A model generated the notes under the pieces. It had not been told where the DNA came from. It ran no database searches and saw only the letters and a program-made list of their open reading frames with translations. Positions 3,133-3,825 of a stretch of DNA of 64,000 nt are shown here, piece after piece (within the stretch, counting starts at the first letter, position 1; every line of letters begins with the position of its first letter). Source of the stretch: Bdellovibrio sp. GTDB taxonomy: Bacteria > Bdellovibrionota > Bdellovibrionia > Bdellovibrionales > Bdellovibrionaceae. The DNA lies in contig JAKFBS010000008.1 of assembly GCA_036677065.1 (NCBI GenBank), positions 64,001 through 128,000 of the forward strand, written 5' to 3'. Position numbers and translations under genes: made by a program.

Positions 3133-3191
3133 GCACTCTGTAGTTCAGCTAGCACCTGCTAGCTAAAACCCTGAGCGTCGGAAATTAAGCA
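3133..3191 (+). repeat. Palindromic intergenic repeat, copy 1 (REP/MITE-like)
   Basis: Shares AAACCCTGAGCGYCGRAAA..AAGCA and the hairpin layout with 12532-12596 and 47737-47800. Confidence 0.7.
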
Positions 3192-3236
3192 AAAAAAAAC
3201 TCTAAACTTTGTCATCCACTGATAAGTTTAGAGTTA
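3191..3236 (-). terminator. Intrinsic terminator of the minus-strand riboswitch RNA
   Basis: Minus strand: AACTCTAAACTT-atcagtggatgaca-AAGTTTAGAGTT followed by a U tract. Confidence 0.8.
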
Positions 3237-3312
3237 AGGGGAATGAAACCAATCCATGAAATTAAATGTATTTGTTTTTCCTTCCATTGCAGTTTTCACC
3301 GCAGGTTCTTAT

Positions 3313-3400
3313 ATCCTTTGGTAGCTGGCTGGCTTTTGCTGAATAAACAGCGAGCCCCTATAGCTTTGCGTCCCAGAGTTCCCTCTGGTTTGCCTTGAGG
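3313..3400 (-). promoter_or_regulatory. c-di-GMP-I (GEMM-I) riboswitch aptamer
   Basis: Minus strand reads AAGGCAAAC-CAGAG-GGAA-CTCTG-GGACGCAAAGCTATAGGGGCT...GCCAGCCAGCTACC. This matches the GGCAAAC/GNRA/GGACGCAAAG/YUACC consensus. Confidence 0.92.
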
Positions 3401-3825
3401 CAAAAGAAGGATACGGAATTACCCGTATTCTTTTCAAACCGCTAGTGACCTCCTATTACGTAAGTAAAGAAATCAACTCGAAACCATTGCCTACACCATG
3501 TAAACCGGTTTCCGTCTGTTAAACGGTAAGATATTTTATTTATCGCAACGTCACTTTGGTGCTTTATCGTTATGATCGTGAATTCGCTTCATATAACGTC
3601 CCTCCATTAAAACTAACAACTGACCCAGGTTGACTTGGCCTTGCGACCTTTACCCGGCATACGTTAGAAAGCTTACTCAGCTTTGTTTGCTTGTATGAAT
3701 TAAGAATAGCCTGGGTGCGAATTGTATTTCCAATTTTTTTTGATTAATCTCAAAAAAGAATATAAAACGTCTCAAATTAATTATCTCAATTCTAGGAATT
3801 CGGCTGTGCCGATGCAGGAACAAAT

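Follow-up and report, generated by a model that had tools for sequence, protein, structure and literature searches.

Within the window, the stretch of 64,000 nucleotides that was analysed, a convergent mltD-like gene and an ABC-F ATPase gene flank a predicted minus-strand transcript with an internal c-di-GMP-I aptamer. The genes and features, in ascending coordinates, are:

1713 to 3086, plus strand: mltD-like lytic transglycosylase gene (Pfam SLT and LysM), the convergent neighbour.
3191 to 3235, minus strand: predicted intrinsic terminator, from sequence, fold and counterparts in relatives.
3191 to 3696, minus strand: predicted 506-nt transcript, almost certainly the merRNA orthologue; ends predicted from promoter and terminator, with RNA-library contigs on 3217-3683.
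3234 to 3287, minus strand: micro-ORF 2, 17 aa, MEGKTNTFNFMDWFHSP, with a weak Shine-Dalgarno (SD)-like GGTGA at 3300-3296.
3236 to 3251, minus strand: C-rich 3' motif that hardly varies, the complement of a generic SD plus AUGAAA.
3279 to 3285, minus strand: 3' strand of helix X, overlapping the ORF 2 start, from pairing across 43 loci.
3317 to 3404, minus strand: c-di-GMP-I (GEMM-I) aptamer with G at position 20 (3394), from the Rfam match.
3405 to 3411, minus strand: 5' strand of helix X, a pyrimidine strand directly ahead of P1, from comparison and RNAalifold.
3439 to 3448, minus strand: 5' strand of the predicted long-range helix P0; partner 3305-3296.
3449 to 3454, minus strand: conserved AGGAGG with no start codon behind it, from comparison of loci.
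3551 to 3592, minus strand: micro-ORF 1, 13 aa, MKRIHDHNDKAPK, from homologues and synonymous bias.
3601 to 3605, minus strand: SD-like GGAGG of micro-ORF 1, from sequence.
3613 to 3667, minus strand: optional 5' domain (stem, conserved internal loop, stem, variable insert), from two-sided pair changes.
3668 to 3684, minus strand: clade-restricted AAAGC hairpin, from predicted folds; similar only in L022, L031 and L032 among the loci read.
3703 to 3732, minus strand: predicted promoter TGGAAA-N18-TATTCT, from sequence, with a predicted start at A3696.
3826 to 5445, plus strand: ABC-F ATPase gene, between the RNA and mrp.
5442 to 6305, minus strand: mrp/NUBPL P-loop NTPase gene, the conserved upstream neighbour, from Pfam and neighbour comparison.

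The aptamer matches positions 1-87 of the Rfam model RF01051 at 67.6 bits (E 4e-11; gathering score 35) and is both the sole Rfam match in the window and the sole RF01051 match in the genome; a search of 3050-3850 at E values up to 10 returned nothing further near a gathering score. The profile match bears out a sequence-only reading of this DNA, which had placed a GEMM-I aptamer here on the minus strand. Window base 3394, which we take to be the equivalent of Vc2 position 20, is G, as that reading also held, and none of 107 aptamer hits carries A at this position. According to the accessible part of PMC6140456, wild-type Vc2 (G20) discriminates against cGAMP while G20A binds both; by this published position-20 rule a preference for c-di-GMP over cGAMP would be expected of the aptamer.

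The promoter-like site ends seven bases before A3696 and the U-tract hairpin ends at 3191, so that the limits of 3191-3696 (∼500 nt) proposed from sequence inspection appear right at both ends. The same promoter pattern occurs in 27 of the 43 loci with micro-ORF 1; the TGGAAA-N18-TATTCT site was not listed by the consensus promoter scan, and the terminator was overlooked by the corresponding scan because its loop exceeds 8 nt. The terminator comprises a 12-bp hairpin and a U-tract, begins 82 nt past the aptamer and faces mltD, in agreement with the strong terminator, ∼80 nt past the aptamer and converging on mltD, that had been described. Its counterparts in relatives (57 hairpins, median -16.1 kcal/mol) are stable and varied. 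For the region 3191-3696, earlier called structured, none of 20 shuffled versions folds as well (z -3.5). Four metatranscriptomes contributed RNA-library contigs that map to 3217-3683, several of them differing at few positions; these contigs convey no strand, level or phase, and DNA may have been present. The flanking genes have little or no cover in the four runs, and the tmRNA locus shows the same island pattern in partly different runs. The contigs come from runs chosen for containing the stretch, so depth in these runs ranks nothing; none of the metatranscriptome runs contained half of the sampled words, and runs with small word shares were excluded. In two studies there are contigs that stop at 3682 and 3683 and run on into loose ends, presumably Illumina adapter; this is at most a weak hint of an RNA 5' end.

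The closest named relatives of the mltD gene are from Pseudobdellovibrio (86% identity, best segment). Between the RNA terminator and mltD lie a bidirectional terminator for mltD at 3092-3121 and a palindromic hairpin at about 3143-3168; both are absent from locus L010, whose MltD is 99% identical, and hence look recently gained or lost. Only some members of the genus have the ABC-F gene interposed between RNA and mrp; it lies within 1.5 kb of the aptamer in 17 of 78 aptamer-centred loci.

The sequence-only reading had seen in the unit a homologue or analogue of merRNA, the abundant RNA of Bdellovibrio bacteriovorus. Its spread, the mrp/mltD neighbourhood and the motifs held in common with B. 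bacteriovorus decide for the former: the 506-nt unit is, with little room for doubt, the Pseudobdellovibrio orthologue of merRNA. The aptamer is present in 23 of 24 same-genus, 116 of 120 family and 64 of 100 order genomes, nearly always as a single copy. The mltD gene, mrp or both lie within 1.5 kb in 56 of the 78 aptamer-centred loci, the ABC-F gene alone in 2 and none of these genes in 20; conversely, 9 of 20 named mltD loci scanned have an aptamer within 3 kb. In strain HD100, the accessible Table 2 and Table S1 of PMC3627812 place the mrp gene Bd1134 212 nt from the merRNA 5' end and mltD about 10.7 kb away. For the sequence comparison the B. bacteriovorus s4 locus (L059) was used. At L059 the aptamer adjoins mrp, and the distance from the -10 box or predicted start to the U-tract is about 446-450 nt, compared with the 445 nt given for merRNA in the available part of PMC3627812. 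This locus contains both micro-ORFs (MKNRIHDHHDEPPK and MEGINTYKDWFHSP), and homology with L059 and L058 (the B. bacteriovorus comparison) extends outside the aptamer to both ORFs, AGGAGG, helix X and the 3' motif. On predicted ends, both the unit here and L059 have the hallmarks of a stand-alone merRNA, namely its own promoter and terminator, a length of about 450 nt and an internal aptamer. As far as PMC3627812 could be accessed, the HD100 RNA is likewise a stand-alone unit of similar length with a single internal c-di-GMP-I aptamer and mrp as neighbour; it differs in being 445 nt rather than the predicted 506 nt, while here a 5' stem-loop domain is present and mrp sits past the ABC-F gene instead of directly beside the RNA.

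PMC3627812 reports having found no conserved downstream ORF and no conservation of merRNA beyond Bdellovibrio. Contrary to the latter statement, homologous loci were found outside that genus, and the conservation of ORF 2 both at this locus and in B. bacteriovorus s4 revises the 2013 non-coding description while leaving the orthology intact. In the literature searched (subscription journals mostly outside coverage, bioRxiv supplements excluded) no paper describing ORFs or helix X in merRNA was found. The element merRNA was already known; its range now takes in most of the family and, among the order genomes searched, about two thirds. A sensor-less copy was sought in five genomes with no or a weak aptamer hit; four lacked the 3' module and the fifth was interrupted by a contig end.

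Several relatives depart from the common layout. L095 (5707-5805 and 6558-6654), L106 (4551-4655 and 5610-5712) and L131 each contain two short promoter-aptamer-micro-ORF-terminator units ∼1 kb apart. Family f2 (L002, L006, L141, L144, L145, L148, L154 and L161) has a compact form in which the aptamer lies near the predicted start and is followed by a strong SD and a proline-rich micro-ORF running through the terminator. The same-genus locus L015 is without ORF 1 and has ORF 2 out of frame, with aptamer, helix X and 3' motif kept. Another locus of the genus, L136, has two more c-di-GMP-I aptamers (1498-1603 and 2243-2346) ahead of long ORFs with signal-peptide-like starts, that is, ordinary riboswitch use of the same aptamer. 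The aptamer at 5641-5725 of L066 scores best as the variant c-di-GMP-I-GGC, RF03167 (59.3 bits against a cut-off of 59).

The description of the RNA as an orphan without a downstream gene does not survive comparison with relatives, since two conserved micro-ORFs lie inside the unit. Of 85 unique loci, 43 have a homologue of micro-ORF 1; within the genus, 23 of 24 loci have it at this position. The synonymous share of its codon differences is 0.45 in frame; four other frames give 0.06-0.12, and the reverse frame that shares its third positions gives 0.37. The Arg, His, Asn and Asp columns each use several synonymous codons. The final two codons are circular as evidence because the search selected ORFs ending in PK, and five more loci (L067, L071, L072, L155 and L162) have a homologous-looking ORF 1 with other endings. 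Because its changes are biased towards synonymous ones, micro-ORF 1 is likely to be a genuine coding sequence for a 13-aa peptide. No ORF 1 was detected in 42 of the 85 unique loci or in other families, and none of four genus-g22 genomes lacking it has a copy elsewhere. Both micro-ORF peptides are too short for protein search or structure prediction. An A-rich motif at about 3530-3545, a few bases past the ORF 1 stop, recurs across the genus.

Two 5' hairpins had been put forward as extra RNA domains. Both sequences are present, but neither is a conserved domain in itself: the AAAGC hairpin has counterparts confined to the closest relatives, and GGTC-gcaa-GGCC (3648-3637) is a variable insert within the larger, covarying 5' stem-loop. 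In that domain 9 of 11 predicted pairs show two-sided changes (18 aligned loci), and the pattern is present in 25 of 85 unique loci, the doubtful L005 among them.

Micro-ORF 2 starts with the ATG at 3287 and spans 17 codons, ending at the terminator base. In 46 of 57 loci, and over 8 different in-frame spacings, its start shares the frame of a terminal FHSP; in 56 of 64 loci a stop directly follows FHSP (TAA 28, TAG 25, TGA 3). The frame is open across the 3' motif in 60 of 60 loci; the two alternative frames are open in 36 and 47 of these, and shuffled linkers in 50% of cases. Out-of-frame versions (11 of 57 loci) represent 9 changes on a tree built without the linker. Loci of this genus have a weak SD ahead of ORF 2; in L059, GAGGTG lies five bases upstream of the ATG, and loci without ATGGAA (L004, L119 and L122) have an ATG behind GGAAGG in the same frame. 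The C-rich 3' motif is present in 64 of 85 unique loci, and its invariance extends to synonymous positions: third bases of the terminal codons show hardly any change while the linker is free, which suggests that translation across the motif, rather than the peptide, is kept.

Of 3999 candidate start windows, 75 pair with the 3' motif at -16 kcal/mol or better, whereas six shuffled seeds give 4-30, a lenient control because the shuffles break the C-run; no specific target stood out among the 3999 windows. Pairing of the motif with the ORF 1 start was considered as a conserved mechanism. In this RNA it reaches -19.1 kcal/mol, within the top 2% of sampled start windows, but it was rejected as a general feature, being in the top 5% in 5 of 42 loci and having a probability above 0.5 in 6 of 42.

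Helix X was found unprompted by RNAalifold in an alignment of 43 loci. Across its 7 pairs 95.3% of cells are paired, a value reached by none of 500 shuffles and compared with 40-69% in slid controls. One pair changes on both sides in a compensatory manner, in 13 sequences that probably represent few events because kin are not independent. The last two bases of its 5' strand also extend P1, and helix X and P1 therefore compete. The P0 duplex is better than the shuffled mean in 60 of 61 loci, its strands differing between genera yet staying complementary; it is not favoured in the full-length fold of this RNA. In other families (21 of 25 loci covered) a start codon lies behind the purine-rich partner strand in 12 of 21 loci and none does in 9 (f12, f3 and f6), while in family f2 the helix X-like duplex is no better than controls.

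In ligand-free folding models P1 hardly ever forms, with a mean of 0.01 across 43 loci and a median cost of 6.7 kcal/mol, which is what a switch would be expected to show. Forcing the aptamer shut lowers the mean helix X value from 0.25 to 0.11, and the number of loci in which helix X exceeds a probability of 0.5 from 11 of 43 in free folds to 5 in bound folds. The modelled ORF 2 start region then opens in 11 of 43 loci and closes in 6, as the freed strand can pair with the 3' motif; in this RNA that re-pairing is seen in the ligand-forced fold, so that start access hardly changes (from 0.33 to 0.38).

The view of the RNA as a gene-less sponge with unexplained 5' hairpins misses the micro-ORFs, the start-masking helix that competes with P1 and the C-rich 3' motif. 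The reading favoured here, to which we assign about an even chance, is that c-di-GMP acts as a translational ON switch for ORF 2, with ribosome loading rather than the ORF 2 peptide as its output, and with ORF 1 providing a peptide. Without ligand, helix X would hide the ORF 2 start; c-di-GMP would close P1, weaken helix X and let a ribosome load on ORF 2. The output would be ribosome passage over the C-rich 3' motif, either covering it or altering RNA stability, a role that seems likely because ORF 2 tolerates frameshifts yet always stays open across the motif, with its stop codon at the terminator or slightly within it. The 13-aa ORF 1 peptide would be made from the same abundant RNA, and buffering of c-di-GMP may be a side effect of that abundance. 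The direction of the switch is taken from geometry, as the folding models fail to show opening of the start. This failure counts against the ON switch, as do the several families that keep the helix without a start codon, the limitation of compensatory change to one pair, the 11 of 57 loci that are out of frame, the weak SD and the patchy occurrence of ORF 1.

In the principal alternative, that of Karunker et al. (2013), the abundant RNA serves mainly as a sponge or store, taking up c-di-GMP during attack phase for later release, and helix X and the ORFs do no more than tune affinity, release or stability. The published abundance of merRNA in attack-phase B. bacteriovorus (2.0 million RPKM, 5006-fold over growth phase, in the accessible part of PMC3627812) favours such a role. 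So do the presence of the aptamer at every locus, even where a start codon is lacking, as the one shared part, and the lack of A at position 20 in all 107 aptamer hits. However, the aptamer is not pre-folded and conserved competitors oppose its folding, while a sponge needs neither an open ORF 2 nor an invariant 3' motif nor ORF 1. The available portion of PMC3627812 offers the idea without a test, and that of a 2019 preprint (10.1101/617340) remarks that it has never been tested; we consider a sponge unlikely. A translation-independent function as a ligand-gated trans-acting RNA, in which the 3' motif blocks the ribosome-binding sites of other mRNAs and c-di-GMP hides the motif by swapping helix X for a helix between ORF 2 start and motif, appears improbable. 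It would explain the synonymous-site invariance of the motif, its excess pairing with start windows and its retention in g22 loci without ORF 1; the swapped helix indeed appears in the ligand-forced fold, and RNAIII is a precedent without Hfq in the accessible text of PMC12612679. Against this, no target stands out under a lenient shuffle control, modelled access to the motif is unchanged by ligand (0.38 versus 0.39), the motif is absent from 21 of 85 loci, and the open frame and its stop codons are left unexplained. Rather unlikely, too, is a dual-function RNA that would combine such blocking with the ON switch: in attack phase the 3' motif would block ribosome-binding sites of many mRNAs while the RNA also gives the 13-aa peptide, and on prey contact c-di-GMP would free the ORF 2 start, ribosomes would cover the motif and the lifted block would release growth-phase translation.

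A c-di-GMP-gated decoy for CsrA, with conserved GGA-containing elements binding the protein and ligand altering the number exposed, seems improbable. This genome does have csrA, adjoined by an ORF that we take from its operon context to be fliW. At L111 (G000:C1:685402-688557) csrA is confirmed by Pfam, in an apparent flgK-flgL-csrA-fliW cluster in which the flgK, flgL and fliW names are our assumption. The CsrA consensus, ANGGA, averages 4.86 copies per RNA, compared with 2.54 for dinucleotide shuffles, and exceeds the shuffles in 58 of 64; SD-like elements without a start codon are conserved. According to the accessible part of PMC13443453, B. bacteriovorus CsrA represses a flagellin reporter. 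The ANGGA excess, however, is largely made up of SD sequences and ATG-GA starts, and measured against CsrB/RsmZ-type sponges, which carry GGA motifs in hairpin loops, the enriched elements here lie mostly in predicted stems or SD sites; in f3 loci, moreover, the helix X partner is GGGGG. Co-occurrence is uninformative: of 101 order genomes, 94 have csrA and 65 have the aptamer. The convergence of the terminator on mltD would suit a transcriptional attenuator whose read-through gives antisense RNA to mltD, a proposal that is improbable in the extreme: a search for an antiterminator gave no signal (the 5' arm of the terminator pairs upstream at -9.4, against -9.7 in shuffles, and more strongly in 23 of 57), a second, bidirectional terminator is present at 3092-3121, and the downstream neighbour varies: in L059 other genes take up 2.2 kb, and in HD100 about 10.7 kb.

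The unit favoured here as a translational switch resembles other RNAs in part. With c-di-GMP-I/GEMM-I riboswitches (RF01051, Vc2) it shares the full 87-position match, G at position 20 and a predicted platform that masks the ribosome-binding site, but its aptamer lies 290 nt inside the transcript, ahead of only a 17-codon ORF and a terminator. In Vibrio cholerae, small RNAs ending in Vc2 likewise have the aptamer in their 3' part, and ligand may set their stability; these are tfoY leader fragments ending at the aptamer, according to the accessible portion of 10.1101/617340, whereas the unit here has its own terminator and no long gene. The available text of PMC13724677 describes c-di-GMP riboswitches ahead of small ORFs in Clostridioides difficile, also in a life-cycle switch, but these are transcriptional OFF switches for membrane-associated proteins, in contrast to the 13- and 17-codon ORFs and predicted translational control at this locus. 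Staphylococcus aureus RNAIII, as presented in the accessible part of PMC12612679, is similar in its length of about 500 nt, 5' peptide ORF and conserved 3' region able to pair with ribosome-binding sites; it has no ligand-binding aptamer, and here only generic complementarity to ribosome-binding sites is seen. Hfq was not found in this 96%-complete genome.

In attack-phase B. bacteriovorus, merRNA reads about equal those of all protein-coding genes together, and the function of the RNA has been a guess since 2013. The presence of two conserved micro-ORFs, one of them likely switched by the sensor, makes its job testable. The pocket, helix X, the two start codons and the 3' motif are separable parts that could be mutated in a tractable strain, and the rival explanations predict different outcomes.
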